From assembly GCA_963714275.1 (NCBI GenBank), contig CAVQNT010000007.1, positions 1 to 64,000 on the forward strand: a stretch of DNA of 64,000 nt, written 5' to 3'. The position numbers and the translations under genes are program-made. Shown here piece by piece: positions 29,044-47,500 of the stretch (its first letter is position 1; each line of letters opens with the position of its first letter). The stretch comes from Candidatus Bathyarchaeota archaeon (lineage in GTDB: Archaea > Thermoproteota > Bathyarchaeia > Bathyarchaeales > DTEX01). The notes under the pieces were generated by a model. It ran no database searches and was not told where the DNA came from. It saw nothing but the letters and a program-made list of their open reading frames with translations.

Positions 29044-29287
29044 TGTATTGTAAATAGAGACAAACATTACTCCAGAAATATAACAACACACACATGTAAG
29101 AGTGGGAGAGTTAGGAAATATTTTTTGTTATTTTGTTTTGTATGTGATTCATCTCTCAAACATATATACATACATTTTTCACACACCTTAAGAGAATAAA
29201 AAAAGGGAGTAAAAGAGAATACGAGTAAATCTGAATATGTGAGAGGAAGAGCGAGAACGTAAACAAATGTCAGAGAGAGAGAAAAAG

Positions 29288-29313
29288 ATTAAATTTTAGT
29301 CCCCAACCCCAAA
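29288..29313 (+). repeat. Dispersed intergenic repeat, copy A
   Basis: ATTAAATTTTAGTCCCCAACCCCAAA; matches copies at 30171, 33278, 34801, 45790 and 46486. Confidence 0.75.
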
Positions 29314-29348
29314 GAAGAGAATTACAGACTCTGACCATGTGAGGATGC

Positions 29349-30059
29349 CTATTTCTCCATGGCTGCGTCTCGTAGGTCTCTAGAGAGTTTCTCAATCGCG
29401 TATCTGAGTGCCATCCGCGGCATGTTCCTCTTATTCTTCATCACGTACTCGAATACTTCCTTCTGATGGAGTCTACTTGCCTCTTTGAGAAGCCACCCAT
29501 ACCCCTTCTGGACGAGATCATCCTTGTCCTTCAATAAGCTGTTGGAAATCTCGAATACATCCTCCATAAACAAGCCTTTTCTAGCAGGTAGAATCAATGA
29601 TACTGCTGAGGCACGTCTAAGCCATCTATTATCTGATTTCGTTCAGGCTTTGAGACGGGCGATACATTGCGGGAAGCGTTCGATAAGTGCACCTACAGCA
29701 TGATTGCAGAGAGTGTCACATTTGGCCCAGTTGTTAACATATCTCTCAACCCATTTTTCGAACATGTCGAAATCATTTGCATCATAGTCTTTCCTAAGAG
29801 AGTACGCCCATTCAAACGCGATTAAAGCCTCTTCACAATAGTCTGACTGCAGAAGCTTTTCACACAGGGAAAATACCTCTTCTTTACTTTTTCCCTTGAA
29901 TTTCTCAGAATACTTCTTTGCAATCTTTCCTACATCTAGAGTCTTCACCCCATAGAATTTCACATCTTCCTTGAAGAAGCGTTTGTAGCTATTCTTAGAC
30001 TTCTCATCTACGCTTGATTTCGAATCCGCCCTAATATCAGAAATAATTCCATTTTCCAT
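29349..30059 (-). CDS. DNA alkylation repair protein (AlkD-like HEAT-repeat), frameshift near 29645
   Basis: FYGVK, NNWAKCD, RWLRRAS, VQKGYGWLLKE and MPRMALRYAIEK motifs. Confidence 0.85.
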
Positions 30060-30170
30060 AACTATACATATATTCCAGAATGGATATTTGAACTTCATTT
30101 TTACTTGATTGCTGTGGCTTAATCATCTTGCTAGCAATCATAATACCAAGTCAAGCTAGCTAGCTAGGGG

Positions 30171-30197
30171 TTAGTTTTTAATCCCCAAACCCCAAAC
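30171..30197 (+). repeat. Dispersed intergenic repeat, copy B
   Basis: TTAGTTTTTAATCCCCAAACCCCAAAC, directly preceded by GCTAGCTAGCTAG. Confidence 0.75.
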
Positions 30198-30539
30198 ATC
30201 TCTCTTTTTCCCAATCATTCTCTCATTCTCTCTCTTATATTACACCTACACACAAAACTAAATTGGACTGTTGAGTTCTACATTGAAAGAACTTTATTGA
30301 AAACGTCAATGAATTGTGTGTGTGCAATGTCAATGCGGTCAGTTCAAAAACTAAAATGAGAAATGGGTAAATGGGGAAATAGAATAAAAAGGGGAATTAT
30401 TCTAACCTTTAGAATAATTAACTAGCTAAACGAACACTCATGGGTTGTTAATCTTAGGTTCTTAGAAAAGTTCATAAATGAATAAAATTCATATTTTGTT
30501 TTGGTTGAGATGAGCTTCAGCTAGCTTGAGTAGAAGATT

Positions 30540-31223
30540 ATGGTGATTTATAAGTATCTTAAAAGAGAGTTTCTGGAGCGATTCAAAGAAGAAGGTTCAA
30601 TATGTATTGGAAACATTAAGTGGTATAGAGAAATCGAAAGTGAAAAGATACGAGACCCACACGAGGGAAGGACAACCTATCTTCTCAATACAGGAGAAGA
30701 GTCAATTGAGCTTTCTGTAGAACAGGTCAATGCAATAACAAATGATTATTACATCTCAGTACCTTTGAAAGTAAATCCACATACTTATTTTTGTTCTGAT
30801 TTGAAGGTTCCAAATGCGTTTGTTTTCAGCACTTCCAGCAGGCTTGATGAAGAATTAATGAGTTATCTCGGATATGATGCATATTATAGTATTTCTAATA
30901 TCAAGCAGTTCCTGAACGCTGTTAGTGACGAATTGAACAAGCATCACAAGTTACTTTTTTCACTAGCTCACAAAGTACGCTATGTTCCGACAAAGACAAT
31001 CAGAGTTACCAACAGTAACAAGGACGCTATAATTCGTACAACGCCATACGACAAGTCTAAGTCGGATAGAATGAAGACAATCTACGTTGAAGACTATCTC
31101 ACAAAGTCTCAAGCTTTCGAAAAAGAAGAGGAGTTCAGGCTAATATTCATAACAGCGACTCCGATTGGTAGAGAACCTGTTTATCTAAGCTCTAGGAAAT
31201 TTACTGAATACTGTGAATTCTGA
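30540..31223 (+). CDS. Hypothetical protein, loosely DUF2971-like
   Basis: IYKY...D.HEG...FSTS...KVRY...EEEFR pattern. Confidence 0.5.
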   Translation: MVIYKYLKREFLERFKEEGSICIGNIKWYREIESEKIRDPHEGRTTYLLNTGEESIELSVEQVNAITNDYYISVPLKVNPHTYFCSDLKVPNAFVFSTSSRLDEELMSYLGYDAYYSISNIKQFLNAVSDELNKHHKLLFSLAHKVRYVPTKTIRVTNSNKDAIIRTTPYDKSKSDRMKTIYVEDYLTKSQAFEKEEEFRLIFITATPIGREPVYLSSRKFTEYCEF

Positions 31224-31393
31224 GCATCTAGTGAACTAGCTCACTACTTTTATTTCGATTTGAATTCTTTGTAGTCCCAGATGTGGTCTTTGCCTTATTG
31301 GAGGTTGCAGCGATATCCATAAAACGCGTGTTAAAAAAACCAAAACTAATAATAATCTAGACACGAAAATAAATGATAAAGGGGTAAGTCATT

Positions 31394-32091
31394 TTGAGTA
31401 GAATCGGTCAAGAAGCGGGGAGTATTTTGAACGACTTATTGAAATGATTTTTAAAGCTGCTGGGTTCACAACTGAAAGAGATAAGTTGTTTTCTTCATCT
31501 TCTGGAGTTAGACACGAAATTGATGTTTGGGCTATAATAAATGCTGATAAAGTCGCAATAGAGTGTAAAGATTGGGCAAGAATGACATCCAACATACTGA
31601 AGAAAGAACTGGGCGAATTTAGGTCTAAGGTATCAGATATAGGGGCTATAACTGGAATTTTCGCAATTAACCAACCTGATGATGGTCGTTTTCAACTATA
31701 TAAAAAATACTTGAGAGAAAATGGGCTCTTCTTATGGGATAAAGATGATGTAGAAAAATGGAAGGATAAGATGGGTAGTTCTGATTATCTGAAGGAGTTA
31801 TATGATTATCTTGGACTCTCCCAACAATCCCAAACTAAAGGTGGGAAGATGTTTGGTTTTCTTAAGAGTGATGGAATGTCTACGGCTTTAAAAAAAATAG
31901 GGAAGGTAGCCTACAAATCAGCAGTGGTTACAGCAGATGTTGCACAAAAACTTGGAGAGGAATTTCTAGTAGATGAGAAACCTCGGAGAAAGAAAAAACG
32001 GACTAGTCCAAAACGCGCGCGTACTAGTTCAAAACGAAAACGACCAACGAAGAAGAAAAGAAGCAACGATTGGTCTGTGTGGACGATTTAA
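31394..32091 (+). CDS. Mrr-like PD-(D/E)xK restriction endonuclease with a basic tail; 5' frameshift near 31415
   Basis: GEYFERLIEMIF, SGVRHEIDV and AIECKDW motifs. Confidence 0.75.
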
Positions 32092-32333
32092 AAATTTTAC
32101 TAGTTAGCTAACTACAAAGTTGAAAAAAACGAATTGAGAATTTCTTCAGACTTTTTTTGGCTCTAAATTATGGCAACTTGTGGCTTGCAAATGAACTCTT
32201 AGAGGATTTTTCCATTGACTAACCGTCTTTGTTTTTCCTTATTTAGAATGGAATTTCTTATGGCATAAGTGACTAAAGGAGTAGATGGGATAGCAAGCGA
32301 CAAATCTGACATACTGAAAGTTGAATGAAGCAA

Positions 32334-33185
32334 CTAACATTTCTGACAAAATATAGGTTCGATGCCCTTGCTATTTTTGGCTAAGAGAGCGGTTTCCTTC
32401 TTGGAAAGCGGTTTAAATTTTACTGCAGCATCGCAGGCCATCCACAACAGTTCCGCGTGGCTTGGGCTCACCGCAGCTGTAACAGGCAGCGAAAGAGTGA
32501 ACCGGAGGGCTAAGGAGACCTCTTCTGGCGTATCCAACGGTTTGTACCAGCATTTGGGCCATATCTGTTCTTTTCCTTTTGTCTTCGCTAAAGACTTCAG
32601 GGCTAATAGGGCAACACCTTTTTCTTGAGCCTTTTTTATGACTCGTGGACCGAAGTTGCCTTGGTGCCAGCATACCCAGTTTAAGGGGAAAAGAACACTA
32701 TCAAACTTGAATTGTTCCATCAAAGTCATTGCAGCTTCTTCAGAGTGGGCGGAGAACCCAAGATATTTGGCCAATCCTTGCTCTCTGAGCTTTCACAAAA
32801 GCTTCGATTGCTCCTCCTGATCCCATTATTTGGCTGACTTCTTCCATTGTTGTCACCCCGTGGAGTGGTACAAGTCAAAGTGGTCTGTCTGCAGGAGTCG
32901 AAGGGATTTACGCAGTTCTAATTCAGCCTTCCCTTTAGTACGTTGTCCAGTTTTACACGCAAGGAAAACTGAGTCACGGTAAGGCTTAAGGGCGGGACCT
33001 AATCGCTCCTCAGCGTTCCCGTATGAGGGCGCAACATCAAAATAGTTGATGCCTCTTTCAACTGCTTGGGAGACTATGCGACTTGCTGATGATGGTTTCT
33101 CATCTCTAACTATGATACCACCGAAACCGACAACTGAGAGCTCTGGACCTGTTCTCCCAAGCCTTCTCTTCTTCATTTCAGTCAT
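32334..33185 (-). CDS. Aldo/keto reductase, frameshifted
   Basis: RRLGRTG, GINYFDVAPSYG, LACKT, DHFDLY and YLGFSAH motifs. Confidence 0.88.
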
Positions 33186-33277
33186 GTTTATTCCTGCCGA
33201 ACAAATATTAGAACAGATTCTCCTACGCTCCAATGATTATTCAGGAAAGTACATAAAGGTTAGCTGAGCTTAGCTAG

Positions 33278-33308
33278 TTTAAAATTTAATACAAACCCAA
33301 AACCCAAA
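33278..33308 (+). repeat. Dispersed intergenic repeat, copy C (degenerate)
   Basis: TTTAAAATTTAATACAAACCCAAAACCCAAA, preceded by TAGCTGAGCTTAGCTAG. Confidence 0.5.
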
Positions 33309-33361
33309 TTTTCTTTCTTTTATTCTCTCTATCTCTCTTTTAGTGAGCTTTGAGGAACATT

Positions 33362-34067
33362 TCACACCGACCTTGTTCGACAAGTAACCTCATGAAGAAA
33401 TCTCGCTAAGAGTGGTTCAGGTTTCCTAACGGCAAAATTAAGCTGAGGAAGAAATGCTACTCCCAAATAGAAAGGATGATTGACGAGCTTAAACCCGAAT
33501 ATTCGCTCCCTGTCAACACTGGTAGCAAGAAGTTCCAAGCCAACCTGCTCAAGCCGAGACCAGTATTCTCGGTTCACAAACCGTCCACAGCGAACTATAC
33601 CCTCTATTTTTTCAGATCCATACAGATCTGCAAGGAATCTTCCAGGGATAAGCCGGATAGACTTGAGAGGTGCGAACACATAATTGCCCATCTTCATGAA
33701 CAATAGGAACAGGGGTTGTTGGCACATATTCCACACTGTTCGCTTCCGGAAGGCCGGCGAGATGGCGTGCTACATCAACCGCTGCTGCCTGAAGTCCGCC
33801 ACAGATTCCGAGAAGAGGAATCTTTGATTCACGGGCTACCTTACAGCACACAACTTGCCCCTCGAAAGATGGAGTGGGACCATTAGGAACAATGACACCT
33901 TTTACATTAGTAATCTCGCTTACAGCTTCCATGGGATGCTTCCACAAGACATTAATCGAAACATCCATGAGGCTGGAAATCTCCTCAAGATGCTCACTGA
34001 GTGCTACATGCCCATCATTTCTTGGGTTGCGTTCGAGACAAATTAATAAGTTCATTGGATAAGTCAT
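33362..34067 (-). CDS. Stand-alone CTP-synthase-like class I glutamine amidotransferase domain, frameshift near 33680
   Basis: IPLLGICGGLQ, LPEANSVE and HPFYLGVAFLPQ motifs. Confidence 0.7.
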
Positions 34068-34426
34068 AATCTCGCCTCATTCATTGCGAAATGCTGCACA
34101 ACTCATTCATATTCGACATTAATGTCGTATATCCTTCTACATTAGTAGAATATCCGAAATTACATCTCTTTTGTTGATTTTAGTTATCCATTACCCTATT
34201 TGAAGATTAAGTCCAAGGGGCTTTTTATTTTTTCCGATATTCCTGTTGCTCACATAGGTTTGAGATAAAAAATTAATCTTTTTTCTCTGACTAACTAACT
34301 AGGAACGTATTCCGTAATAAAAATTTGATGAAAATGTTAAACGGGCTCTTTGAGTTAGTTAACTTATAAATTTGAATACGTAAATTGAAAAAAAATTATG
34401 GTTTATCCGTATGGGATGAAGAACGA

Positions 34427-34771
34427 TTGACTAAGAATAATAAGAAACAAAAAGGTCTCGCCAAGGCGCAAAGCACAGTTTTAGCTGATCTAATTAACTA
34501 TCAAGAAGGCTCTATTGTCAGCCGCACATTGATTGATAAGAAAGCTGGAACCGTAACGGTTTTCGCTTTTGATGAAGGACAAGGTCTAAGTGAACATACT
34601 GCACCTTACGATGCCATTGTTTACATAATCGACGGGGAAGCTGAAATCGTCATTTCAGGCAAAATCATAACTGCAAAAGAGGGTGAAATGGTCATCATGC
34701 CAGCACACCGACCGCACGCTTTAAAGGCAGTAAAAAAATATAAAATGCTCTTGATAATGATACGGTCTTGA
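34427..34771 (+). CDS. Cupin domain protein
   Basis: GSIVSRTL, FAFDEGQGLSEHTAP and MPAHRPHAL motifs. Confidence 0.88.
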   Translation: MTKNNKKQKGLAKAQSTVLADLINYQEGSIVSRTLIDKKAGTVTVFAFDEGQGLSEHTAPYDAIVYIIDGEAEIVISGKIITAKEGEMVIMPAHRPHALKAVKKYKMLLIMIRS

Positions 34772-34800
34772 AGTTAACATCTTAGACCCAAAAAAACTTT

Positions 34801-34826
34801 TAATTAGGTTTGGGGATTAAAAATTA
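34801..34826 (-). repeat. Dispersed intergenic repeat, copy D (inverted)
   Basis: Minus strand reads TAATTTTTAATCCCCAAACCTAATTA. Confidence 0.7.
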
Positions 34827-35314
34827 TTTTTTCTTCTTATTGTATTTTCCTTCCTAACTCCTTAGATTCACTACATAGAGATCGACAGATAGTGAGCTTG
34901 CTGCAACAATGAACAAAATTCATCAAGCTACTATGATGAAAATTCAGAGATTTGGTTTAGAAGAAGAAGGAAACTGCAAAACACAAAATTCTTCTTCTTC
35001 TTGTTTAGTTGTTCCAGATGTGCTTCCGAGCGTTGAGAAAGCCCTTAAGGTGTCAGGTTTTAACCAGGTTTACTGTCAAATCAAAACGGTGAAAAATATA
35101 GGATTCTACAAATTCCGTAATATCAATGTATCAATTTTTCAGTTTTGTATTCAAATGTCTTATAAACTCATACGATATGAACCGGCTGTCCAGACCGATG
35201 GTTGTGATAGTTAAAATGAATAAACCTGAATACGAAAAATATTTAGTTAAAATATATAACCATGTTTCATCGTTTTTTATTAATCCATATGAATATTAAG
35301 AGAGAGATACAAAA

Positions 35315-35554
35315 ATGACTAAAAAACCAGAAAAACAAACCAACTACACATATATGGATTTACTGACAGAAGCCATTACGAACCATGAAAGAAAGTTAAA
35401 TGAGATAATTATAAGGCTAAACAAAGTGGTCAATGAATTTACAGGAATAACGAACCCAGAATCTTCACAACAAACGGAACAACAACCTGTGGAAGATGAT
35501 GAACCAGAAGAGGATCTATCTGCTCTACTTAAAACAGCACATGGTATGTTATAA
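35315..35554 (+). CDS. Small hypothetical protein (short coiled coil, acidic tail)
   Basis: ATG start, plausible composition (MDLLTEAITNHERKLNEII). Confidence 0.55.
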   Translation: MTKKPEKQTNYTYMDLLTEAITNHERKLNEIIIRLNKVVNEFTGITNPESSQQTEQQPVEDDEPEEDLSALLKTAHGML

Positions 35555-36094
35555 AGCAAACAATTAGAAACAAATTTTCTTTTAATATTCTATTTCTTAT
35601 TGGTTGGTTTAGATTAAGATTATTCTTCGTTAAGAATATGATGAGCCTTTTGGACTTGTTCATCAGGAAAGTCAGATATGAGTTCATTCGGCACCTTTGT
35701 AACTATTTGTAGATTCATCTGAATTTTTGGCTGTCTTATATTTTATATTACTAAAGTATAACCACATATAGATGCTGAAATGGATAAGTAAACTATTGTG
35801 ACAATAAAGTTGTTTTCGCTCAGATAAGGAATAATTTCATCTATAAGAAGAAACTCGCCAAACACAGCAGTAAAAAAAAGAAAATCTTTTTCATGTTTTC
35901 TCCTTTAAAGTGAGCCCTCAGTGACAGGGCTATTAAGACAAAAAGGTTAGTCAAGACAATAATCTGTAGAGGACCCATTTCTTACCCCATAAAAGTTATG
36001 GATGATATACTTTTAAAAGGTATTGAACTGCTGATCCAGACTACTATTTATAGTTGAGAACAGGCAAAGAAGGTAGAAAAATTTTGATTGAAAG

Positions 36095-36742
36095 TTAAAC
36101 CTTGCTTTTCTTTGTTGCATACATTAGTGTACTTAATAGATCTATTCCATATTTTTGAATATCATGTATCTGCCCAATTTGTTCTTCAACCTTGGATAAT
36201 TCTTCACGCCTTTCATTCAAAACTGCATGTATCTTTTTCCTATTACGTTCTAGCTTAGGAATTAGTTGATTTATCTCCTCAGATTTTACTTGCTTTTCTT
36301 GGATTTCTTTTTCGAGTAGTTCTATTTCTTCTTTCTTACTTAGAATGTAGCTGTCTAAATCTTGTTTTTTCACGTTAAGTTTTGGTATTAATTCCTCAAT
36401 TTCGGCAATTTGTTTTTCTTTTTCATTAATTTGCTTTGTTAAAAGTTCCATTTTTTCATTAAGTTGAGGAATCAACGAGGATGTTGTTTCAATTTTTGCG
36501 GTTATTCCCTTCTTTATTTTTTCGAATTCTGCAAGTTCATCTCTTAAATTGTTTAGGATATTGAATATGTCTCCATTATCAGATTCATCTTTCTGGAGAA
36601 GAGTAAGAGTTCCGTGTTCTTCTTCAACATTTACTTCATTCGATTTTACTTGTTCTTCCTGTTTGTCATAATTTCCCACTTCTTTTTCAGTAGTGAGGTC
36701 TGATGCTGTTTTCTCTGATTTTCCTTTCTTGAATATACCCAT
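36095..36742 (-). CDS. Long coiled-coil protein, paralogue 1
   Basis: MGIFKKGK start, heptad repeats with recurring LIP(K/Q)L, C-terminal IQKYGIDLL. Confidence 0.75.
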   Translation of the reverse strand: MGIFKKGKSEKTASDLTTEKEVGNYDKQEEQVKSNEVNVEEEHGTLTLLQKDESDNGDIFNILNNLRDELAEFEKIKKGITAKIETTSSLIPQLNEKMELLTKQINEKEKQIAEIEELIPKLNVKKQDLDSYILSKKEEIELLEKEIQEKQVKSEEINQLIPKLERNRKKIHAVLNERREELSKVEEQIGQIHDIQKYGIDLLSTLMYATKKSKV

Positions 36743-36961
36743 CCATATCACCAATGCAGTATGTTTCTTGTTGGTCACGAACTACATGGAAAACTAATTA
36801 ATATTAGAATTATGAATTTGGTATCTGAACTGTGAGTCCATTAGTTTTTCCATGAAGGTTCTAAATATTGTCAATATTATGCTTCACCAGCACATTTTAT
36901 ATATAAAAATGATTCACTAGATGGAAAAGCTTATAAAAGGACTCTAAATATAAATCAACAA

Positions 36962-37789
36962 TTGGTTATCAATTTGAGCAGCAAAGGTCAAAGGTCAATT
37001 GTCTTAGGTTTCGCATTCTTTTGTATATGGTTATCGTTCTTTGTCTTAGTGTATCTTATACTTTTCATAAATCAGCAGCAAATACTCAGTATTCAAATAG
37101 ATTTTGACATGCAATTAATTGAAAGTTTTATTGGATGGGAGTTGACAAAGCAAATCACGTGGGCTGTTTTAATATTTCCATGTCTTGTAGGGTTTTTTTT
37201 CGTAGTTAACCGGCTAAAGGAAAAAAATTCCAACTACATGATTTTTCTTCTAACTATTTTATACTTGGGATTCGTTCTAACCTTCGAGTACTGCGTCTTG
37301 AAACTAATTTGGTCTTTTCAGCTCATTAAAAAATATGAAACTCTGTTAGGAACAGCATTTGTTGAAACCGATCCTATTCAAAGCTTCCTGTTCATTCATA
37401 CTGGTGCCATGACCCCTCAAGGCATTGTTATTGTTGCAGCGTTACTGGGAATTACGGCAGTTCTATTCTTCCAGCTCCCGCAATTTGGCGCTCTAAGAAA
37501 AGCAAGGCCAGAAGAGGAAGTAGAACTAGTAGGGAAAGCGCATGAACTGGTCGAAGAAAAACCGAGAAATAATAATGAAGATTTAAAAAAAGTTAAAGGT
37601 ATTGGTCCGATGATAGCTGAAAAGCTTATAAAAGTGGGCATTAAGAGCTTGGCAGATTTAGCGAATTCCAACTCCCAGAAAGTTGCAGGAGCACTCGATA
37701 TTTCTAATGAGAGTGCCATCGTCTTTATCAATGTGGCTAGTTCTCTGATAAAGGCCAAAAAAACCTCCAAAAAACTTAAAATAGAATAA
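36962..37789 (+). CDS. Four-TM membrane protein with C-terminal helix-hairpin-helix domain
   Basis: Hydrophobic helices followed by DLKKVKGIGPMIAEKLIKVGIKSLADLA. Confidence 0.8.
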   Translation: MVINLSSKGQRSIVLGFAFFCIWLSFFVLVYLILFINQQQILSIQIDFDMQLIESFIGWELTKQITWAVLIFPCLVGFFFVVNRLKEKNSNYMIFLLTILYLGFVLTFEYCVLKLIWSFQLIKKYETLLGTAFVETDPIQSFLFIHTGAMTPQGIVIVAALLGITAVLFFQLPQFGALRKARPEEEVELVGKAHELVEEKPRNNNEDLKKVKGIGPMIAEKLIKVGIKSLADLANSNSQKVAGALDISNESAIVFINVASSLIKAKKTSKKLKIE

Positions 37790-38208
37790 ACCCCCAACAG
37801 GGTAATTTTTTTGCCAAGAGATTGTTCTATGAAAAAGGAGTTAGAATTAAAATTTTTATGATATTTCCCTATTTAGAAGGATTCCGAATCCATATTTTCT
37901 ATTCATAACCTTAATGTACAATAAATATTTAGATTCATTCTGCCAACCATACCAGTCTGCAAGAGGTGAAGCTTTAGTACCGACGGTTAATTAAAAGAAC
38001 ATTCTAAAACTGCCCACGTACCCGTCGGTGCTAATCATCCCTTAAAGAAAATAATGCTTGCAGTTCAGTATCCTAAAGCTAGCTCAGCTAATATTTCATA
38101 TCATATTCTTGCCCGAAATGAAGTGTTGATACTTACTCTATATTCATAATTCTAATATCTTCTATGCGTTTTCAATTTTCCAAATATCGGTCAGCGTAGG
38201 CGATATAG

Positions 38209-38955
38209 ATGGGTCTATTTAGGAAAAAAAGTCTGAAGCACAGATTGATACTACTGCTGAAATAAAAAAGGAGAGATTTTTAAAGGAAGTGAAGCAACAG
38301 GAAGATGAAGAACAGTTACAACTATCCTATGAACCTTCTGAAGATGATGGATTGTGGCAGATGTCGATGCCTGAACTGTGGAAGATGGCTTCTAGCCTCG
38401 GAATTTCCAAGAAGGGGCGAAAAGAGGAGCTGATAAAAAGGATTCTTGATGCTCAGAAATCCGAGGTGCAGGTAATTCATGATGATAAGAACTTAAATGG
38501 CACACTAGATCAGTTAAGAAACGAATTACGTGAGTATGAGAGAATTAGAGAGGAAATAAAGACAAAGATCGCGTCAACATCGGAGTTAATTCCAAAACTC
38601 GATGAAAGAAAAGAATTTCTAGAGAAAGATATTAACCAGATGCAGCAAAGAATTACTGAGGTAACCGAGCTTTTTCCGAAGCTCGAAGATGAAAATGAAA
38701 GCCTTCAAAAAGACATACAAGAAAAACTTAGAATAAAGATACTTCTGGAAAAAAGAGATTACTGAAAGAAGAGGGAAGATTGAAGAGATAGCCAATCTCC
38801 TCCCGAAGCTTAAAAGAAACAAAGAAGATACTCAGAAAAGCATGCAACACAACCAGGAAGAAATTTCAAAAATCGATGTACAAATCAAGCAGATTCAGAA
38901 TTTCCAAAAGTATGGCTTGAATTTACTTAACACATCTTTATATATGATAGAGTAG
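38209..38955 (+). CDS. Long coiled-coil protein, paralogue 2, with SAP/Rho-N-like motif; two frameshifts
   Basis: MGLFRKK start, MSMPELWKMASSLGISKKGRKEELIKRIL, LIPKL repeats, C-terminal FQKYGLNLL. Confidence 0.7.
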
Positions 38956-39200
38956 AGCAAGAAATAAAACTCGCTGTTCTCTACGCATTCTTGCGATGCG
39001 AAAACCCGAAAAATGACTTATAATAAATAAGAACGAAGTACAATTCCTATGGATTATAATAAAAATGAGTTGCATTGAAACTAGCTGACTGCAGTTGGCT
39101 AAAAGCCACAGGCTGGCTCTGTCAAAATTGGGCGACCAAAGATGCTTGCTCTTTATATTGCCATATTGTCACACAATTTTCTGCCTAAACGTTGGCTTCA

Positions 39201-40220
39201 TTAAAGAAACATGGGATTTGTCCACGCTGTTTTGCCACGTTTGTCCGAGGCTTCCACACGCAAGTATCTCCTAAAGATGCTGCCTTCGACCTTTAACTGT
39301 TCAATGCCTTTTTTGCTGAAGATTATTTTGGCTTTCCATGCCCTTCCATCCAGATATGCCGTGGTTATTTCGCCTTCCACGTTTGCTTCAACATGATTGT
39401 ACATACGCGTCATTCCCTTTCTTTCAGCAGGCTCCTTCCATGCTTTCAGCAGCACTCGGAGATTGTTCATGTCGATGCAGAATCCTCTGCCATCGTGCGA
39501 GACCATGTTTACCCTAAAAACGGGAGTAGACTTCAGACGGACTACACGGTCAGACATCTCAAGTGCCTTTATTTCAGGTCCCGTGGAAGAATAGAATTGT
39601 CCCGTTTTTAGCAATTTAATTGTTGTCGCGGAGTCATCAGCGTTTTTTACCCACACCCATCCTCCGTCGGCATCAATTGGTGGAACGGAATATCGGTGAG
39701 CATCGTCCACAGCGCAGCCCCAACACTTAACGCCTGATGACAAGAGCGAGTCCCAGTGGGTCACAGCGTAGCCCTTCGCCACTTCGACATCGCATCCTGT
39801 GTTGTAAACTTCGATTCCAGCGTAACCCTTCAAGCATTCAAGGTCTTCGTGCACTAGACTGGACCATGACGGGTGAGCGATGATTGCTAAGCCTCCTGCA
39901 CTGTTAATCTCATCAATAACTTCTTGTGGACTACTGAGATTGTTACATCTTGGGTTATCGACACCTAATCCTACGATGTGGTAGGGTTCTTTCATTCGGC
40001 TTTCTCCCTTCGCCACTTCTAAGCCTGTCAGAAACGTGCCTTCTCGGCTATTATTGTGATCTTTAGTTACCTTGCCATGGTCCGTTATCACTAATAAACC
40101 ATATTTTTTTGAATGGTAAAAGTCAGCGACCTCTTTTGGCGAAAGAAACCCATCTGAGGACGTGGTGTGACAGTGCAGCGAACCTTTAACCCACGATTTG
40201 TCAACTTCCAGCCTGTACAT
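39201..40220 (-). CDS. PHP-domain metallohydrolase (CehA/McbA-like)
   Basis: WVKGSLHCHTTSSDG, ITDH, AHP, GIEVYN and DDAH motifs. Confidence 0.85.
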   Translation of the reverse strand: MYRLEVDKSWVKGSLHCHTTSSDGFLSPKEVADFYHSKKYGLLVITDHGKVTKDHNNSREGTFLTGLEVAKGESRMKEPYHIVGLGVDNPRCNNLSSPQEVIDEINSAGGLAIIAHPSWSSLVHEDLECLKGYAGIEVYNTGCDVEVAKGYAVTHWDSLLSSGVKCWGCAVDDAHRYSVPPIDADGGWVWVKNADDSATTIKLLKTGQFYSSTGPEIKALEMSDRVVRLKSTPVFRVNMVSHDGRGFCIDMNNLRVLLKAWKEPAERKGMTRMYNHVEANVEGEITTAYLDGRAWKAKIIFSKKGIEQLKVEGSIFRRYLRVEASDKRGKTAWTNPMFL

Positions 40221-40354
40221 GCTACCACCTTATATCCGCAAACGCAGTACGCACATTAAATGCTTTATCAAAACATCTAACAAAATTAATAGTGCCGACT
40301 ACGAAAGATTCTTAAAGTTAAAAAAAATGAAAAAAGGAAAAAGGGAACGGTAAC

Positions 40355-42005
40355 CTAGTATCCTCCAGGCATGCCAGGGGGCATACCAGAAGGAGGCATC
40401 TCTGGTCCTTTAGGCTTAGACGCAGCGATTACGTCGTCTATTCTTAGAATCATGCATGCTGTTTCGGAAGTCTGATTTTATGGCGTGTTCTTTGACGATT
40501 GCTGGTTCGATGACGCCCTTCTTTCGCATATCCATGATTTTTCCGCTGAACACGTCGACGCCTATCGTTGCTCCTTTAGGTTTCTCGTGAGCTGCTCTCA
40601 ATTCAGAGATTATGTCGATGGGTTCAAGCCCAGCGTTCTCAGAAAGTGTCCACGGAATAACCTCTAGGCTTTCCGCGAAAGCGTTCACTGCGAGCTGTTC
40701 TCTGCCCCCAACTTTGGGTGCGTAGTCTCGTAGTTGCTTGGCTAACTCAGCTTCAATTGCTCCGCCGCCTGAAACGATTTTACCGTGTTCAACGACGTCG
40801 CGGACGACCGAAAGCGCGTCATTAAGTGCACGTTCAGCTTCGTCGACCATTCTTTCCAGTCCAGCTCGAACGAGGATTGTGACTGACTGTGGGTCTTTGC
40901 AATCCTCAACGAAGATCATCTTGTCGTTGCCTATCTTACGTTCCTCAACAAGCCCTGCTTCCCCAAGGTCTTCATGTCTCAGATCGTCAAGGTTCACCAC
41001 AATCTTAGCTTTAGTGGCTCTAGAAAGTTTTTCCATGTCAGACTCTTTAACCCTCGTCGCAGCCATTATTCCTTCTTTTGCTAGGAAGTGTTGGGCCATA
41101 TCGTCAATGCCTTTCTGGCAGAGAACGATGTTAGCTCCAGACTTCTTGATTTTGTTAATCATATCCTGTAACATGTGGGTTTCCTGGTCTAAGAAAGCTT
41201 TGACTTGGGATGGGTCCTTAATCCTTACCTCAGCGCTGAACTCTGTCTTCTCAACCTCTAAAGCAGCGTTAACTAGGCATACCTTTGCTTTCTCTATTCT
41301 CTTAGGCATTCCTGCGTGTGCGGCTTCTTTGTCTATGATGACACCTTTTATGAGGCTGGTTTCAAAGAGGCTTTTACCAACTTTTTTCACGATTTGAATC
41401 TGGTCGATGTCTGCGACTTTTCTGTCCCCGCGCTGTTCAGTTATCTGCTTCACTGCCTCTATAGCGACTTCTGACAAATGACTTTTCTCGTAACCAACAA
41501 TTTTACTCGACATAGAGGTTTCAGCAATCTTCCTCAGTATTTCGGCGTCATCAAACGCAACATCTTCAGCGACCTTGTTTAGTATCTTAACCGTCATGTC
41601 TGCAGCTTTCCTGTACCCGCTTACAATGGAGATTGGGTGAATGTCCTGTTCCAGCAGACTTTCAGCTTTCCTTAACAGTTCACCTGACAGTACTACTACT
41701 GTTGTTGTGCCGTCTCCGACCATGTCGTCCTGGGTTTTTGCAATTTCAGCCATCATTTTTGCAGCTGGGTGTTCGATGTCCATGTCTTTCAGGATTGATG
41801 CTCCATCGTTTGTGATCGTTATGTCTCCAAGGTTATCAATCAACATCTTGTCCATTCCACGTGGACCAAGCGTTGTCTTCAGAACCTCAGCGACTGCCTT
41901 TGCTGCAGTAATGTTTGATTTTTGTGCTTCCTTCTTTCTTGTTCGTCCGGTACCTTCCTTCAAAATTAAAACTGGCTGTCCGCCTTGCATAGTTAAATAT
42001 GCCAT
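40355..42005 (-). CDS. Thermosome (group II chaperonin) subunit, frameshift near 40470
   Basis: [15 protein letters not shown] and GDGTTT motifs; C-terminal [13 protein letters not shown] in the shifted frame. Confidence 0.95.
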
Positions 42006-42120
42006 TCTGATTTCCTCATATCTTCTTAAGTATGTCCTTTAAACATTCAATGTCTTAAATATAAGTTTTTCATTTTACGCTAAAAGAAAACAAAGAAAAA
42101 CAGAGAATTATGCCCTAATT

Positions 42121-42336
42121 TTACCTTCCCAATATTTTTTCTGAAGCACGTCTGATGTCTTCGGATTTGATTGTTTTCCTGCCTGCGTGCATGGACCAGT
42201 CTATGGCTTCTTTTCCGATTTTTACGCCAATTTCTTCAAGAACCTTGCCCATCTCCTTGGCAGCTGGTTCACTTACTCTTTCTGCGCCTGCTTTTTTGCA
42301 GATTCTGTGCATAGCTGCTAATGCTAATTCGCCCAT
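42121..42336 (-). CDS. Archaeal histone (HMf-like, chromosomal)
   Basis: KKAGAERVS...HAGRKTIKSED; 71 aa. Confidence 0.93.
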   Translation of the reverse strand: MGELALAAMHRICKKAGAERVSEPAAKEMGKVLEEIGVKIGKEAIDWSMHAGRKTIKSEDIRRASEKILGR

Positions 42337-42532
42337 AACAATTCCTCTATCCGTTATGGATAAGTAGGCTTATTTAACCCTTTTTCTGCGAAAAGGAAAA
42401 GAATTCCTTTTTCTGGCTTTATCGAATCATTATTCTTATATATTAGGTTTGGAAAGATTCCAGAAAAGGTAGGCTGCGTAAAGACGCTGCAAGATGAAGT
42501 TTAAATCGATTAAAGAAAAAAAGAAAGGATGA

Positions 42533-42757
42533 GTGAACTTGGGAAACGTACGCCCAGAAAAAGTGAAAAGGATTGCTCGTGAACTCTTCGAAAAGCATCC
42601 CACCATGTTTACTACTGATTTTGAACAAAACAAGAATCTCTTGAAGACAATGATGAGCACACCGTCGAAGAGTCTGAGGAACATGATAATAGGTTACGTA
42701 ACCCGATTGGTCATTCTATCTCAACCAGAAGACTCCTCAGAAACCGAAGAACCTTAA
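42533..42757 (+). CDS. rps17e: 30S ribosomal protein S17e
   Basis: GNVRPEKVKRIA, FTTDFEQNK and SKSLRNMIIGYVT motifs. Confidence 0.93.
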   Translation: MNLGNVRPEKVKRIARELFEKHPTMFTTDFEQNKNLLKTMMSTPSKSLRNMIIGYVTRLVILSQPEDSSETEEP

Positions 42758-42829
42758 ATAACTAGTCCAAATAAGAAACAAATAACCTTATTTCAATAAC
42801 AGAAATAAATAAAAAGGTTAATTGGGCAA

Positions 42830-43203
42830 GTGGCAAAAAGGATGATCGACGATTTCCGTAAAGGTTGGGCTTTACGCTACATGAGGGAGGCTGAAGACGA
42901 AATAAGAGCAAGCCAGAAGTCCGCCCAGTCATTCGGTCTCATTCTTGACGCAGCAAGGAAAGCTCAGCTGCAGTGTACTATAGCCTCGGAGACCCGTTCT
43001 ACATTGAGAGTCTTGTCCACGAAGTCTTCCACAACAACCAAAATGTTCAAGACCCCATCCTCCGTTGTTTGGTCGACATCGAAAACACGCTGCAGAGGAT
43101 AGAAAACCTTCCAGAGTCGTCCGGCGAAGAAGCCTTCAAGGACGCTGACGAAGTCGTAAAAACCGCGGCTGGAATAGTAAATCTATTGGTCTCCGAAGAC
43201 TAA
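42830..43203 (+). CDS. Hypothetical helical protein (possibly HEPN-like), frameshift near 42970
   Basis: ORFs 42830-43102 and 42973-43203 join as ...ARKAQ.AVYYSLGDP. Confidence 0.55.
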
Positions 43204-43226
43204 TCAAGGATTATCAATACGACTTT

Positions 43227-44006
43227 TTACAAAAAGAAATCTTCCAGTTTCCTGGTTTCAGTTTCTCTGACGATTTCAGCGCATTTTCTTGGGTCAAGCT
43301 GCCTAAAATCCAGCCCCAATGTCACCAAGAGTTTCTGCACGCCCTTCGCTAATTGGGGAGCAACGAGGATGCCTCTAACTTCGCGATTCACCATGTTCTT
43401 CACAGAGTCAACGTATTTTGCCAGTTGCAGCGTAGACTTCCTTTCCTGCTGTTTTCCGTTTAATCTCGATTATGACCATTCTGCCCTTGTCGTCGACGCC
43501 ATAGACGTCGATGAAGCCCGGCTTTACTTTTTTCTCATACGTGATCAGCCTTAACCCTTCTTCCACAATCGAGGGGTGAAGCAATATCGCCTTCTGCATG
43601 TCCTCCTCGCTTGCGTACAGGGAAAATTCGCCTTTGTCGACAAGGCTCAGGACAGACACCAGATATACATGGTTAAAATGTGCTGCGATAGATTCGTTGG
43701 GCTTTTTCCTAACAGCCTTGATGGTGAGTATGCCCTTTCTACTGCTTGTGTAAAAAACTGAACCCGGTGGCTGCCAGTTTACGGGCTCATAGCCTTTTGG
43801 CCTATGGACCAGAACTGACCCATCTTCTTTCATGATGAGGATTCTTTCGCCCAGTTCCAGCTTTGAGTTGCTCTGCCTTGATATTCGACCCAGCAGCTGC
43901 CGACAACAATGAGCGCCTTATGCCCAGAGGTCGCCACCCTAACAGCCTTCACAGCTTCCTCTAGGCTTGGGTTCTCGTAAACAACAGCGGGTCTTCGTGG
44001 CAGCAA
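43227..44006 (-). CDS. nucS: Endonuclease NucS/EndoMS, two frameshifts
   Basis: CWVEYQGRA, KEDGSVLVH, PVNWQPPG, GFIDVYG..IEIKR and RGILVAP motifs. Confidence 0.92.
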
Positions 44007-44063
44007 CTTTCTTCGACAACCTTTTAGAACAACTAAAATAAATAAGTCTTCTCGGGAACAAAT

Positions 44064-44648
44064 TTGCCGACAACGTGGTTCGAGAAACTCGGAATCATCC
44101 GCCACTACGACAAAATGGCAAACATCTACGATTCCTTATACCGAGAAGAACAAGAACTAAAGATTAAACAAATACTAAGGCATATGGCTGTCCACGATTC
44201 GGACTTAACTTTGGATGAAGGTTGTGGTACAGGTTTCCTTTTTGAACACATCTACAAACAAGGTGCTCACCTCGTCGGGGTAGATTTATCTAAAGGGCTC
44301 TTGAGGATTGCATTAGCCCACGTTAGGCAAGCTGGAACAAGGAATGTTTCGCTGGTTCGGGCGGATGTTGACCATTTGCCCTTCAAAGAACGTGTGTTTG
44401 ACAAGGTCTTTGCGTTGACTCTTCTCCAAGACTCTTCGGACCTAGACGTGACACTAAAAGAAATAATAAGGACGACAAAAGTGGATTCGATGCTTGCGGT
44501 TACGGGGCTCAAGAAAGTTTTCACGGAAGAGCGGTTCAAACAGGCTTTAACGAAAGAAGGCTTGGAAATCAATATTTTGTTGACGCCCGAACAAGTGAAA
44601 GATTTTATCGCTGTTTGTCGGATGCACGTAGAAGCAAAGATTAAATAA
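44064..44648 (+). CDS. Class I SAM-dependent methyltransferase
   Basis: LDEGCGTG, GVDLS and ADVDHLPF..FDKV motifs. Confidence 0.88.
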   Translation: MPTTWFEKLGIIRHYDKMANIYDSLYREEQELKIKQILRHMAVHDSDLTLDEGCGTGFLFEHIYKQGAHLVGVDLSKGLLRIALAHVRQAGTRNVSLVRADVDHLPFKERVFDKVFALTLLQDSSDLDVTLKEIIRTTKVDSMLAVTGLKKVFTEERFKQALTKEGLEINILLTPEQVKDFIAVCRMHVEAKIK

Positions 44649-45325
44649 TGGCTTGGCGAAGTAGTAACTCTGGTGAAATACAGTGCCGACTCACGGAAGC
44701 CTGTCTAAAGCAGGAAAAGTCCGTTCGCAGACTCCGAAAATAGAGGCTACTCCGAAAACTAGGAAATCGCCAAAAATAAAGTATCGGAGAAATTTCGAAA
44801 AAAGAATCATGCTGCAAAGAAAACTGGGACAAAACTGGGGCGCGCGCGCGCGCTAGCAAAACCCAAAACAAGACGTCATTGCAAAATTTTTAGTTCAAAA
44901 TCAAAAATATTACTATTTAACCAACTAAAAGTATTAAAAAATACACTTTTATGAAAGATACATCACTTGAGGTTTCTTTTTCTTTGCTTTCTGGATTTTT
45001 ATCGCCAAATATAAAGGACGCTCACAAAAACTCTTCTGGTTACCACCTTCATCATTATTAGCGTCTTTCTCTTTTTGGGGCAAAAGTCTCACTATCTTGA
45101 TTTAGATACTGAGGCTATTTATATTTGTTTAATTCATGGAAAGAGAGCGAGGAATCCCGACTTCTAATAATGTTTGCCCAACCCCAAACCATTGCTCATA
45201 AGGCTTTTCTAGGGGCAGTTAATCGAGCGAGAAGTGTAGGTGACAACAAGGGCTGAGTAAGTGAAGGTATTAGAGGAATAAATTTAAGTTTCTTGTTACT
45301 ATTCAAGATTATGGGGAGTAATTAA

Positions 45326-45794
45326 TTGTTTAGGAAAAAGAAAACAAGAAGCCCATTCAAAGCCTCAATGCCTATAGATAATCCAGACATTAAATTAGTG
45401 GAAGCTCGATACAAAGGTAAACCATTTTTCTTAGCAGTGGGAGTATCTAAACAGAGAGAAGTAAAGGGTTCAGGGCAACTTAGTATGAACGAAGGAGTAA
45501 AAGGAGGTTACCAGACCCAGAAGGATTTAGATTGGGAGGTTCACTATAATATGGGTGCTCTGCCTTCAGGCTTCATGTCAGCTCAGAAGACTTAAAGGCT
45601 TAATGGCTGGAACGGTTTCTGTTGTAAGTGGAAGCACAGGCGTCTATTCTGGAAAATTTTCAGAAACAAACTCAGAAAGTCTTAGTAATATTGAAAATAA
45701 ATTTTCCAACTTTAGAGTTGAGGACATCAATAGCCTTCTTGAATATTTAGGTAGTATTAGTTTGGCAATAAAGAAGAAGAAGAAAAAAGATTAA
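45326..45794 (+). CDS. Hypothetical protein, frameshift near 45570
   Basis: Two overlapping ORFs after a GGGAG RBS; the stop codon overlaps repeat copy E. Confidence 0.45.
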
Positions 45795-45817
45795 AATTTA
45801 ATCCCCAAACCCAAACC
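45790..45817 (+). repeat. Dispersed intergenic repeat, copy E
   Basis: ATTAAATTTTAATCCCCAAACCCAAACC; inverted match to copy F. Confidence 0.85.
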
Positions 45818-45909
45818 GACCTAGTCTTATACGCTAGTGAACCAAAAAAAAATTCTTTACCACCACAACCAGGACAAATTAATGTATCAACTATTTCTGA
45901 CATTCTTTT

Positions 45910-46238
45910 CTACCATAATCTCCCTTCTTGCTCAGGAATTATCACACCACCGATTGAAGCGTTTACGTCAATACCTTGTGGAATATTCGGTCCACCCTCT
46001 CCAAAGATTACAGCAAAATCTATGATAATGGCTTTATTTGCTGAATTATGAATTGTTATGTTTTGGATTTTCGTTTCACCAGCGTATGCAGTAATTGAAA
46101 ACGTGGATGGTCTTACAGAGATTGGTTCATTAATTGTGAGTGTTCCTTGAACCTGAAAAATGTCCCATGCTCTTACACCCCAATACTGAACAATGATACA
46201 AGTAGTGCTACCAAGATTACTTTCTTATTTGTTTGCAT
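45910..46238 (-). pseudogene. Small secreted beta-rich protein, frameshifted; absent from the ORF track
   Basis: MQTNKKVILVALLVSLFSIG signal peptide, then (shifted frame) RAWDIFQVQGTLTINEPISVRPSTFSITAYAGETKIQNITIHNS. Confidence 0.55.
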
Positions 46239-46485
46239 TTTTCATTTCTCCTATTTTTTCCGTGTACTCTTTCTTCCCTTCAATTAGGGACAGGCGGTTT
46301 CACGCCTCCAACAGAGTTTACTGCTAATGCTATAAACCTTTATTATAATTGAACGTATAAGGGGTTATGAAAGATAATTAAGAAAGACAAATCTATTAAA
46401 TAATATCAGTTAAATTTTGTGTGTGAGTAGTATGTAGTGTGTAGTGTAGAGAACACATATAACAGAACATAACGTAACGGCATTA

Positions 46486-46512
46486 GGTTTGGGTTTGGGA
46501 TTAAAATTTAAT
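46486..46512 (-). repeat. Dispersed intergenic repeat, copy F (inverted)
   Basis: Minus strand reads ATTAAATTTTAATCCCAAACCCAAACC, differing from E only by one C in a run. Confidence 0.85.
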
Positions 46513-46622
46513 GCACACATAATTTAGGCAAATTAGGCAATTTAGGTGATTTTTTAGGAAGAATCTTAGAATAAACTAAAATTTATATACTGAATGATAT
46601 AATAATATTAAATTGAGGATAA

Positions 46623-47438
46623 TTGCCAAAAGCAGAGAAAAATCTCAAACAAATCTATCATCTGATGGTCGAAAAGTTGAGGCAGTTGAGTAAAGGCGAT
46701 GCTTTTGATAAAACGATGGAAGAAAATAAGAGTTTTAACTACTTAGAAAGGAAGGATAGTTATTTCTTTGAGAAGATGACGCAAGCAGTTTTTGAGAGTG
46801 GTTTGCGTGCTTGGGCATGGGAACCTCACACAAGAGGCATAAAAAAAGCGTTTTGTTATTTCGATGTAAGAAAGGTCGCTGGTTTTGATGATAAGGATGT
46901 AGATAGAATTCTTGTTAGTAATAACATGATTCGTAGGAAACCAAAGATTGAGGCAGTCGTCTATAATGCGGGAAAGATAGTTGAGATAAGCGAGAAGCAT
47001 AATGGTTTTTGGAAATGGATAGACAGCAAAGTGATTAGAAAAGGAGATTTGATCTTTCCAAAGCCTGATTTAATTGAAGAGATCCAGAAAACGTTCAAAT
47101 GGCTGACAGGCATAAACGCTTACTATTTCCTAAAGCTTTGCGGTGTTGATGTTGTTAAGCCAGACTTGAATGTTCGCAGGATATTGTTTAGGCTTGGATT
47201 GATAGAAAGTGACAAAAACAATAAGAAAACGTGGAATCAGATACAAGAGGTTGGAAGAAAGATTTCAAAAGCAACTGGAGAGAGGATAATAAACATTGAT
47301 TATGTCATCTATCTCTATGGTAGTGGTGGAGATCAGTTTTTTGATCACCCAATCTGCACTAAAAAGCCGAAGTGCGAAGAGTGCCCTTTAACAAGTTTTT
47401 GTTATTGGTATAGGAAGGGAAGATTGAAAGTAGGCTAG
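46623..47438 (+). CDS. 3-methyladenine DNA glycosylase (Tag-like) with C-terminal EndoIII-type 4Fe-4S motif
   Basis: FFEKMTQAVFESGL, AF..FD...VA, IRRKPKIEAVVYNA, KPDLNVRR and CTKKPKCEECPLTSFC motifs. Confidence 0.8.
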   Translation: MPKAEKNLKQIYHLMVEKLRQLSKGDAFDKTMEENKSFNYLERKDSYFFEKMTQAVFESGLRAWAWEPHTRGIKKAFCYFDVRKVAGFDDKDVDRILVSNNMIRRKPKIEAVVYNAGKIVEISEKHNGFWKWIDSKVIRKGDLIFPKPDLIEEIQKTFKWLTGINAYYFLKLCGVDVVKPDLNVRRILFRLGLIESDKNNKKTWNQIQEVGRKISKATGERIINIDYVIYLYGSGGDQFFDHPICTKKPKCEECPLTSFCYWYRKGRLKVG

Positions 47439-47500
47439 CCAGTCAAGTAATATAACTCGAATTTAAATCCATTTTATAAAAAATTAGTAGCGAAGCCTTT

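Follow-up and report, generated by a model that had tools for sequence, protein, structure and literature searches.

A 13-bp palindromic repeat of Bathyarchaeia as the probable junction of polymerase-less Cas1 transposons

Casposons are defined by a Cas1 gene, inverted termini, a target duplication of 13–15 bp and a family B polymerase (PMC9939771). In Nitrosopumilus koreensis, the family 1 casposase is a protein of 347 amino acids (aa) with no helix-turn-helix (HTH) domain, and it generates a 13-bp duplication in which A1, A11 and T13 are the key positions (PMC8464041). Tandem casposons of Methanosarcina share a single target duplication (PMC4779613). Here we analyze a repeated motif in a 64-kb stretch of DNA from a Candidatus Bathyarchaeota archaeon (assembly GCA_963714275.1, contig CAVQNT010000007.1, positions 1–64,000; hereafter the window), which corresponds to C7:1–64000 of the host genome (G000; 2.64 Mb, 43% GC, 91% complete). 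The relatives retrieved with the thermosome gene of this genome all belong to Bathyarchaeia. We consider it probable, at roughly 0.7, that the motif is a junction, made up of a 13-bp target-site duplication and the adjoining termini, left behind by Cas1 transposons of Bathyarchaeia that have neither a polymerase nor Cas2. As a junction of such transposons, the motif would mark the edges of accessory genes.

The initial annotation of the window listed six copies of a motif of about 27 bp, and this count is borne out. The core TTTTAATCCCCAAACCC, allowing up to three mismatches, has five matches in the window, compared to a mean of 0.24 after dinucleotide shuffling (0 of 100 shuffles reached five). 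The sixth copy, a degenerate one at 33278, is missed by the core pattern and is found at 22.7 bits by a weight matrix built from copies across the host genome; a matrix scan of the window yielded no copies beyond the noted sites. The best-conserved unit is not the C-rich core of that annotation but a 13-bp AT palindrome, ATTAAAWTTTAAT, with 1.3–1.8 bits per position. An alignment of all copies in the genome shows the palindrome flanked on both sides by low-complexity arms that are G-poor in the outward reading, with a mean of 4.1 G per 40 nt, about half of the expected 8.6. One class of arms starts with CCCCAAACCC(AAACCC)n or (CA)n. The second class, read outward, starts with CTTTTTCTCTC or CTTTTTCTTCTTC; on the top strand it lies left of the palindrome and reads GAGAGAAAAAG or GAAGAAGAAAAAG. 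All arms consist of simple repeats that vary in length, namely (GA)n, (GAA)n, (CCCAAA)n, (CA)n and (GGTT)n. Across the host genome the 109 matrix matches represent 94 distinct sites after merging of two-strand matches; symmetry extends beyond the 13-mer (giving two-strand matches) in only 15 of these 94, and C-rich or G-rich flanks are one-sided in most copies. The 13-mer alone is unusable for site calling because the loose pattern with one mismatch is barely enriched (221 matches versus 152 in a backwards-read control).

The clearest indication of what the motif represents comes from its association with Cas1. Clustering of about 2300 stop-to-stop open reading frames (ORFs) located within 1.5 kb of about 170 sites produced no family present at more than seven sites, and one such family is Cas1. 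The host genome contains seven Cas1 matches (PF01867), of which those with a motif site nearby all lie between or beside motif copies; no Cas2 was found in the host genome. Three units of 4.4–6.4 kb surround two intact Cas1 genes and one frameshifted Cas1 gene. They are bounded by inverted termini of 79–187 nt and, directly outside, by a 13-mer that is identical and on the same strand at both ends. Among 20 loci in other genomes, five further elements were resolved; the remaining 15 have no inverted repeat enclosing Cas1, many of them being on short contigs. The eight elements are as follows.

C2 element, ends at 931102 and 937507: 132-nt termini with 95% identity; imperfect 13-mer ACTAAATTTTAAT at both ends, with 3 mismatches if read inverted.
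C4 element, ends at 99115 and 105160: 187-nt termini with 90% identity.
C7 element, ends at 143210 and 147626: 79-nt termini with 76% identity.
G222 element: GTTAAATTTTAAC at either end.
G279 element: CTTAAATTTTAAC at either end.
G078 element: ATTAAAATTTAGT at either end.
G103 element: ATTAATGCGTAAT at either end.
G198 element: ATAAAAATTAAAT at either end, non-palindromic and in flanks of ordinary sequence.

In total, these elements from six genomes have inverted termini of 36–271 nt with 76–100% identity, and the 13-mers are identical and direct in 8 out of 8. An inverted reading is ruled out by five of the 13-mers, which are either imperfect or not palindromic, and the non-palindromic 13-mer of the G198 element with its ordinary flanks indicates that the duplication is exactly 13 bp long and derived from the target. 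The elements measure 4.4–7.6 kb and encode a full-length Cas1 of 344 aa (positions 2–324 of 327 in TIGR00287) plus small ORFs. No polymerase domain was detected by Pfam in 23 ORFs, and in both intact host elements (C7 and C4) no ORF exceeds Cas1 in length. Given the absence of a family B polymerase, the elements are casposon-like and not strict casposons. Following the 13-mer, the element termini start with CTTTTTCTCTC / CTTTCTCTC or with CCCCAAACCCAAACC.

The motif and this Cas1 subfamily also tend to occur in the same genomes. Among 301 sampled Bathyarchaeia genomes, 13 contain both, 24 only the motif, 20 only Cas1 and 244 neither, corresponding to an odds ratio of 6.6 (p = 1.9e-5 by Fisher's exact test, a significance overstated because the genomes are related, with an exact 16-mer that misses variant targets). 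That 16-mer, RTTAAAWTTTAAYCCC, is present in 37 of the 301 genomes, which belong to several families, and is most abundant in the host genome (36 matches), compared to a single match in one genome for the backwards-read control. A 22-mer version occurs in at least 114 stretches of a species-genome collection, and 72 of the 80 matches listed are labelled Bathyarchaeota or Bathyarchaeia. The 22-mer had no matches in a viral contig collection, leaving a viral origin without support.

The initial annotation had proposed scanning the whole genome for the motif. The sites are not evenly spread: they cluster strongly in a few variable regions, 91 of the 94 lie between ORF-based gene calls, the spacing is irregular (0.26 to >15 kb), and the orientation of the motif is mixed within clusters. 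We compared the 600-nt flanks of all 94 sites, requiring at least 40 nt shared with a distant site. At 42 of the 94 sites only one arm is shared, with the homology stopping at the 13-mer, while both arms are shared at 10 of the 94, which represent segmental duplications. This sharing shows the arms to be modular and indicates that the palindrome is a seam between independently moving pieces. In a separate case, the segments C2:81–88 kb and C2:964–971 kb, with three motif copies each, are inverted relative to each other and match at 97.7–99.4% identity for 1.2 kb or more per site; the pair reflects either an extensive inverted duplication or an artefact of the assembly.

One possible sequence of events starts with a Cas1 integrase that would join the two ends of the element to a 13-bp AT-rich target, one at each border, with the palindrome ATTAAAWTTTAAT as the preferred form. 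Gap repair would subsequently duplicate the 13-mer on both sides of the element. The termini, G-poor when read inward and starting as described above, would make each junction a succession of terminus, 13-mer and flank. Each duplicate could again serve as a target, so that new elements would be placed beside old ones and a single 13-mer would come to lie between two termini, as in GAGAGAAAAAG-ATTAAAATTTAAT-CCCCAAACCC. Later deletion and recombination would leave solo junctions that bracket cargo genes and pseudogenes. It is conceivable that some elements are still active, and the window copies, if still mobile, would depend on Cas1 genes located elsewhere (C7:144 kb and C4:100 kb).

The copies in the window probably arose in the same manner, as the seven 13-mers found there are flanked by 14 arms, of which 11 begin as the termini of Cas1 elements do. 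The individual copies are listed below.

29271–29314, + strand: copy A, with a CT-type terminus at 29271–29287 (CTTTTTCTCTCTCTCTG on the − strand), the 13-mer ATTAAATTTTAGT at 29288–29300 and a truncated C-type stub CCCCAACCCCAAAG at 29301–29314.
30170–30428, + strand: copy B, with a degenerate 13-mer GTTAGTTTTTAAT at 30170–30182 and a G-less C-type arm at 30183–30264 that terminates in ACACACAAAA; homology to other copies extends to 30428.
33278–33342, + strand: copy C, with the 13-mer TTTAAAATTTAAT at 33278–33290 and a degenerate, G-less C-type arm at 33291–33342.
34265–34277: a seventh, decayed copy, absent from the initial annotation, GGTTTGAG / ATAAAAAATTAAT / CTTTTTTCTCTGAC.
34804–34859, − strand: copy D, given on the + strand as a C-type arm GGTTTGGGG at 34806–34815, the 13-mer ATTAAAAATTATT at 34816–34828 and a CT-type arm TTTTCTTCTTATTG... 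at 34829–34859.
45770–45817, + strand: copy E, with a CT-type terminus at 45770–45789 (GAAGAAGAAGAAAAAAG, + strand), the 13-mer ATTAAAATTTAAT at 45790–45802 and a C-type terminus CCCCAAACCCAAACC at 45803–45817.
46410–46522, − strand: copy F, with a C-type arm GGTTTGGGTTTGGG at 46486–46499 (+ strand), the 13-mer ATTAAAATTTAAT at 46500–46512 and a CA-type arm GCACACATAA at 46513–46522.

Judged by the sequences of the element termini, the previously described core TTTTAAT-CCCCAAACCC is the right half of the duplication followed by the first bases of a C-type terminus, and the stretch of purines on the left side of A and E represents the end of a CT-type terminus. In the left arm of copy A, the first 16 nt are identical to the terminus of the G078 Cas1 element, and this arm has 81% identity to the arm at C3:75350. 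The arm of copy B has 86–88% identity over 174–253 nt to C4:105160, located outside the right end of the C4 Cas1 element, and to C5:168162, the homology beginning at the 13-mer in each case. Copy E has a right arm with 15 nt identical to the termini of the C7 and G198 elements, and a left arm resembling the terminus of the C2 element. A 13-mer with termini on both sides, as in A, D, E and the copy at 34265, is the structure that tandem re-use of a duplicated target yields. Copies E and F possess the same 13-mer in direct orientation and inverted inward C-type arms that match over about 14 nt, which makes E–F a candidate non-autonomous unit of 0.7 kb. The C-type arm of F sits within a C-poor stretch beginning near 46410, and the stub of copy A adjoins the 3' end of a pseudogene described below. 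The stretch at copy D is 75% complementary over 56 nt to 45759–45814 at copy E, and D and E enclose a conserved core block. The initial annotation was correct in describing the pairs A/B as direct and C/D and E/F as inverted, and in noting that B and F are both followed by a stretch terminating in ACACACAAAA, which is G-less and rich in pyrimidines or CA.

Other features adjoin some of these copies. Runs resembling CTAGCTAGCTAG lie directly beside copy B (30145–30168) and copy C (33262–33277), as well as beside several copies elsewhere in the genome; a (CTAG)n run introduces stop codons in all six frames. Downstream of copy B, 77 non-coding nt at 30343–30419 have 90% identity to G013:C53:4537–4612 in another genus, and a motif-like copy is located about 180 nt from the match at that locus (L099).

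Several results weigh against interpreting the window copies as traces of Cas1 transposons. None of the seven Cas1 matches of the host genome, whether gene or fragment, lies within the window; the copies would therefore be orphan junctions among decayed cargo genes, and the link of the six copies to the elements consists solely in the likeness of the arms and the 13-mer. The 13-mers of the A/B and C/D pairs are too decayed for a comparison as direct duplications, and E/F is the sole window pair with an identical direct 13-mer and inverted inward arms, whose match is just ~14 nt. No empty sites were found for the three host Cas1 elements, the same-genus relatives being without the whole surrounding islands. 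The co-occurrence is incomplete, as 24 of the 37 motif-bearing genomes have no detected Cas1 of the subfamily and 20 of the 33 Cas1-bearing genomes have no exact 16-mer. By sequence scores, the Cas1 is nearer to a CRISPR Cas1 structure (4n06, E = 4e-24) than to the family 2 casposase whose structure has been solved (6opm, E = 4e-11). Finally, in two pairs without Cas1 that have inverted inward arms (C6:469853/475237 and C7:187330/203007), the 13-mer is inverted or near-inverted and not direct, and not every pair is a simple duplication. The first of these pairs bounds a 5.4-kb unit with 171-nt inverted arms that are 99.5% identical, in which the repeat includes the 13-mer and 10 nt beyond it, a misfit with simple target duplication.

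An alternative explanation, related to the shared regulator site that the initial annotation named as its alternative, is that the motif is a symmetric and possibly insulated archaeal promoter, in which the palindrome would act as a two-way TATA element and the G-poor arms as unstructured leaders. The copies would then regulate genes that are mobile or acquired, with transposons perhaps merely landing there. Sequence context lends this idea some appeal: host tRNA genes are preceded by an A-rich B recognition element (BRE) and then (C/T)TTAAAT about 34 nt before the tRNA, a pattern that AAAAAG-ATTAAAAT fits; bidirectional BRE-TATA-BRE promoters are documented in Pyrococcus (PMC6640164); and the outward arms contain half of the expected G. 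Genes pointing away from the palindrome never start less than 44 nt from its center, and several start at 74–81 nt with sequences resembling a Shine–Dalgarno site. However, of the 81 outward-pointing neighbor genes, 60 begin at a distance of more than 120 nt, whereas the genome-wide peak of TATA-like words is 45–60 nt upstream of start codons, and the distant neighbors have TATA-like words of their own at the usual rate (28% compared to 32% of other genes). The motif is also neutral with respect to gene orientation. The 91 host sites comprise 30 tandem co-directional, 20 tandem anti-directional, 24 convergent and 17 divergent arrangements, against a baseline of 59% tandem, 16% convergent and 25% divergent in host intergenic DNA of at least 150 nt, and 66 cross-species sites are divided into 21, 14, 12 and 19, respectively. 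Together with the patchy occurrence of the motif (37 of 301 genomes) and the direct 13-bp duplications around inverted termini, which a promoter leaves unexplained, these data make the promoter interpretation unlikely.

We find it still less likely that the motif is a passive fragile point or a hotspot of homologous recombination, where an AT palindrome and slippage-prone repeats would suffice without a dedicated enzyme and the arms would grow by replication slippage. The arms are indeed simple repeats of variable length, homology between copies stops at the palindrome, and the palindrome itself is inside some inverted pairs. Random breakage would, however, not be expected to produce an exact direct 13-bp duplication in all eight resolved Cas1 elements, nor does it account for the conservation of the same 22-mer across many Bathyarchaeia families.

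It is very improbable that the copies serve as core sites at which a site-specific tyrosine recombinase, either XerA or the integrase of the island, shuffles cassettes in the manner of integron attC sites or pdif modules. In favor of such sites, the extended palindrome TTTGGG-ATTAAAWTTTAAT-CCCAAA could in principle be viewed as a pair of inverted arms separated by an AT spacer, and tyrosine recombinase genes that pass the Pfam cut-off number at least 14 in the host genome, several of them within 4–8 kb of motif copies. Against them, the complete motif-flanked units contain Cas1 and no recombinase, a direct 13-mer beside inverted termini, which is also found non-palindromic in ordinary flanks, is a signature of transposition and not a crossover product, the C-rich or G-rich flanks are mostly one-sided and the orientation mixed, and the island ends have no motif-related direct att-type repeat. 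The initial annotation had combined two ideas in this respect. Its view of the copies as insertion sites or ends of a mobile system is retained, given their restriction to accessory DNA and the breaks of homology at the motif, while the cassette system and its enzyme are not. The units have no common orientation, the motif does not bound duplicated genes at both ends (a 99%-identical DUF2341 paralogue ends at the stop codon), and the proposed integrase at 57.7–59.0 kb, located at the other end of its island and 11 kb away from the closest copy, has no link to the motif.

The initial annotation placed the copies in accessory DNA. This placement was confirmed, as all window copies fall into two islands that are absent from close relatives and the matrix scan detected none elsewhere in the window. 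The islands and the genes between paired copies are as follows.

19107–39150: island 1, low-GC (0.33–0.44) accessory DNA beside tRNA-Glu (18944–19043), containing copies A–D and the seventh copy.
29349–30098, − strand: AlkD-like DNA alkylation repair gene between A and B, with one in-frame TGA at 29643–29645.
44844–59181: island 2, which has a tyrosine integrase (57699–58974, − strand) at its right end and contains copies E and F close to its left end.
45905–46255, − strand: decayed small gene between E and F, with a signal-peptide-like start followed by stops and frame changes.

The closest relative (L001) joins 39151 to 19106 through about 2.85 kb of unrelated DNA in place of the 20 kb of the host genome, and a same-genus relative (L083) joins 44843 to 59182 through about 1.4 kb compared to 14.3 kb. 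These short junctions show that all window copies are within two genome-specific low-GC islands. Gene fragments are abundant in the islands and include partial aldo-keto reductase, amidotransferase and FtsX genes, a split integrase and the interrupted AlkD-like gene. The latter is otherwise full length relative to Pfam DNA_alkylation and is most simply read as a nonsense-mutated pseudogene. Its role as a motif-borne cassette was rejected, since AlkD homologues in three relatives (L093–L095) have no motif alongside. The gene between E and F has a paralogue with 84% identity at C6:62774–63286, without flanking motif copies. No att-type direct repeats were found at the ends of the two islands beyond insignificant matches of 8–10 nt, none of them related to the motif. 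Metagenome contigs scanned with an island-border gene yielded only short contigs, and the sole near-identical one (L225, 98.4%) retains the island edge. Three nanopore metatranscriptome contig sets from the same study matched the region 28000–47500 with just 3 pieces of 33–42 nt, too little to bear on expression.

A number of additional observations concern the islands. The tRNA-Glu(CTC) gene that borders island 1 contains an intron, and the closest relative has a different insert of 2.85 kb at this position (L001 3061–5915), which identifies the site as a hotspot in both genomes. Elsewhere, ARAGORN made putative calls of a tRNA-Ile with a 685-nt intron (C5:31360–32137) and of a tRNA with a four-base anticodon (C5:136338–136415). 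The DUF2341/LamG-like gene at 27988–29043 has a 99%-identical paralogue at C2:344251–345242, with the identity stopping at the stop codon; a motif copy is located 150–245 nt after each paralogue, and these two copies are of different arm families. The integrase at 57699–58974 reads as two overlapping ORFs of 258 and 170 aa, which suggests a frameshift. An 18-nt stretch at 44901–44918 has two 10-mers in common with 58988–59054. One metatranscriptome contig of 156 nt (set X2, record 1) matches 42 nt of copy A (29268–29309) with 3 differences, from the GA arm through the 13-mer into the C-stub. Its flanks are unrelated and it therefore represents a junction of the same type from another locus or organism in that library, whether as RNA or as carried-over DNA.

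If the copies are indeed junctions of Cas1 transposons, a conspicuous repeat family of Bathyarchaeia, a major uncultured archaeal group, would be accounted for as the traces of repeated transposon insertion, marking the points at which accessory genes and pseudogenes arrived or were cut off. Together, the 13-mer and its arms provide a practical marker of island boundaries in Bathyarchaeia genomes. The concept of casposons would be widened to include elements with no polymerase, 94 junctions in one 2.6-Mb genome and a 13-bp AT palindrome as a target. A Cas1 that chooses and duplicates a short palindrome would also bear on the hypothesis that CRISPR repeats descend from the target duplication of casposons. 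These considerations lead us to a further speculation, which is tentative and, in our judgment, doubtful as it stands: Bathyarchaeia may host an active Cas1 transposon without polymerase, whose integrase is nearer to CRISPR Cas1 than to known casposases and whose target is rebuilt twice per insertion, so that repeated landings grow repeat-insert-repeat arrays in islands. The junctions, combining a BRE-like terminus with a TATA-like duplication, might even read outward as portable promoters. Such an array-growing element, if real, would offer a living counterpart to the step that has been proposed to link casposons with CRISPR arrays, with a repeat derived from the duplicated target.

A full-text search on casposons together with Bathyarchaeia found passing mentions only, and a search on intergenic palindromic repeats of Bathyarchaeia returned nothing relevant among the matches listed; no published account of this family was found in the texts searched, although supplementary tables of casposon papers may already list polymerase-less islands with Cas1 alone. 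The motif invites comparison with several known systems. It resembles repetitive extragenic palindromes (REP) and bacterial interspersed mosaic elements (BIME) with their REP-associated tyrosine transposases (RAYT), as well as miniature inverted-repeat transposable elements (MITEs), in being a high-copy intergenic palindrome that is neutral to gene orientation and includes non-autonomous copies. It differs in that the AT-only 13-mer forms no stable hairpin and the conserved unit is the target duplication and not the element. A REP/RAYT system was rejected, as the Y1 transposase PF01797 has no matches in the host genome (91% complete), compared to matches in 6 of 14 named genomes in the control search. 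Integron attC sites and pdif modules are likewise short imperfect palindromes at the borders of accessory genes, but they involve another class of enzyme, whereas the motif shows duplication with inverted termini, units that are not co-oriented and no adjacent integrase with an attI or XerC/D-type site.

The duplication of CRISPR repeats by Cas1–Cas2 is similar in that a Cas1-family insertion takes place at the border of a short, partly palindromic sequence, which is duplicated to give a repeat-insert-repeat order. In contrast to CRISPR, the repeat here measures 13 bp and separates transposons in the kilobase range, whose length is irregular (spacing of 0.7–15 kb), and there is no Cas2, leader or effector gene, nor any sign of processed RNA. 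A CRISPR array as such was rejected on account of the spacing of 0.26 to >15 kb and because no Cas2 was found.

The closest counterparts are casposons. With regard to their definition, the reference elements have Cas1, inverted termini and a target duplication, but not the polymerase. The elements are similar to family 1 casposons (NitAR1-C1) in having Cas1 as the only integrase-like gene, inverted termini, a Cas1 of about 345 aa without an extra HTH and a host among the Thermoproteota. They also agree with the family 1 casposase in the direct 13-bp duplication, whose consensus here likewise has A1, A11 and T13 (compare PMC8464041). Unlike family 1 casposons, they have no family B DNA polymerase and are thus not self-synthesizing; unlike casposons in general, they target a short AT palindrome in intergenic or mobile DNA and not the ef-2 gene or a tRNA gene, and 94 junctions are present in one genome compared to the one or two copies described. 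As in the Methanosarcina arrays (PMC4779613), the duplicated target is re-used, only a single copy of it lies between neighbors, and islands form as elements accumulate. What distinguishes the Bathyarchaeia repeats from those arrays is that re-use is pervasive, at least two classes of termini take part, and most of the structures have decayed to solo junctions around unrelated cargo genes and pseudogenes.

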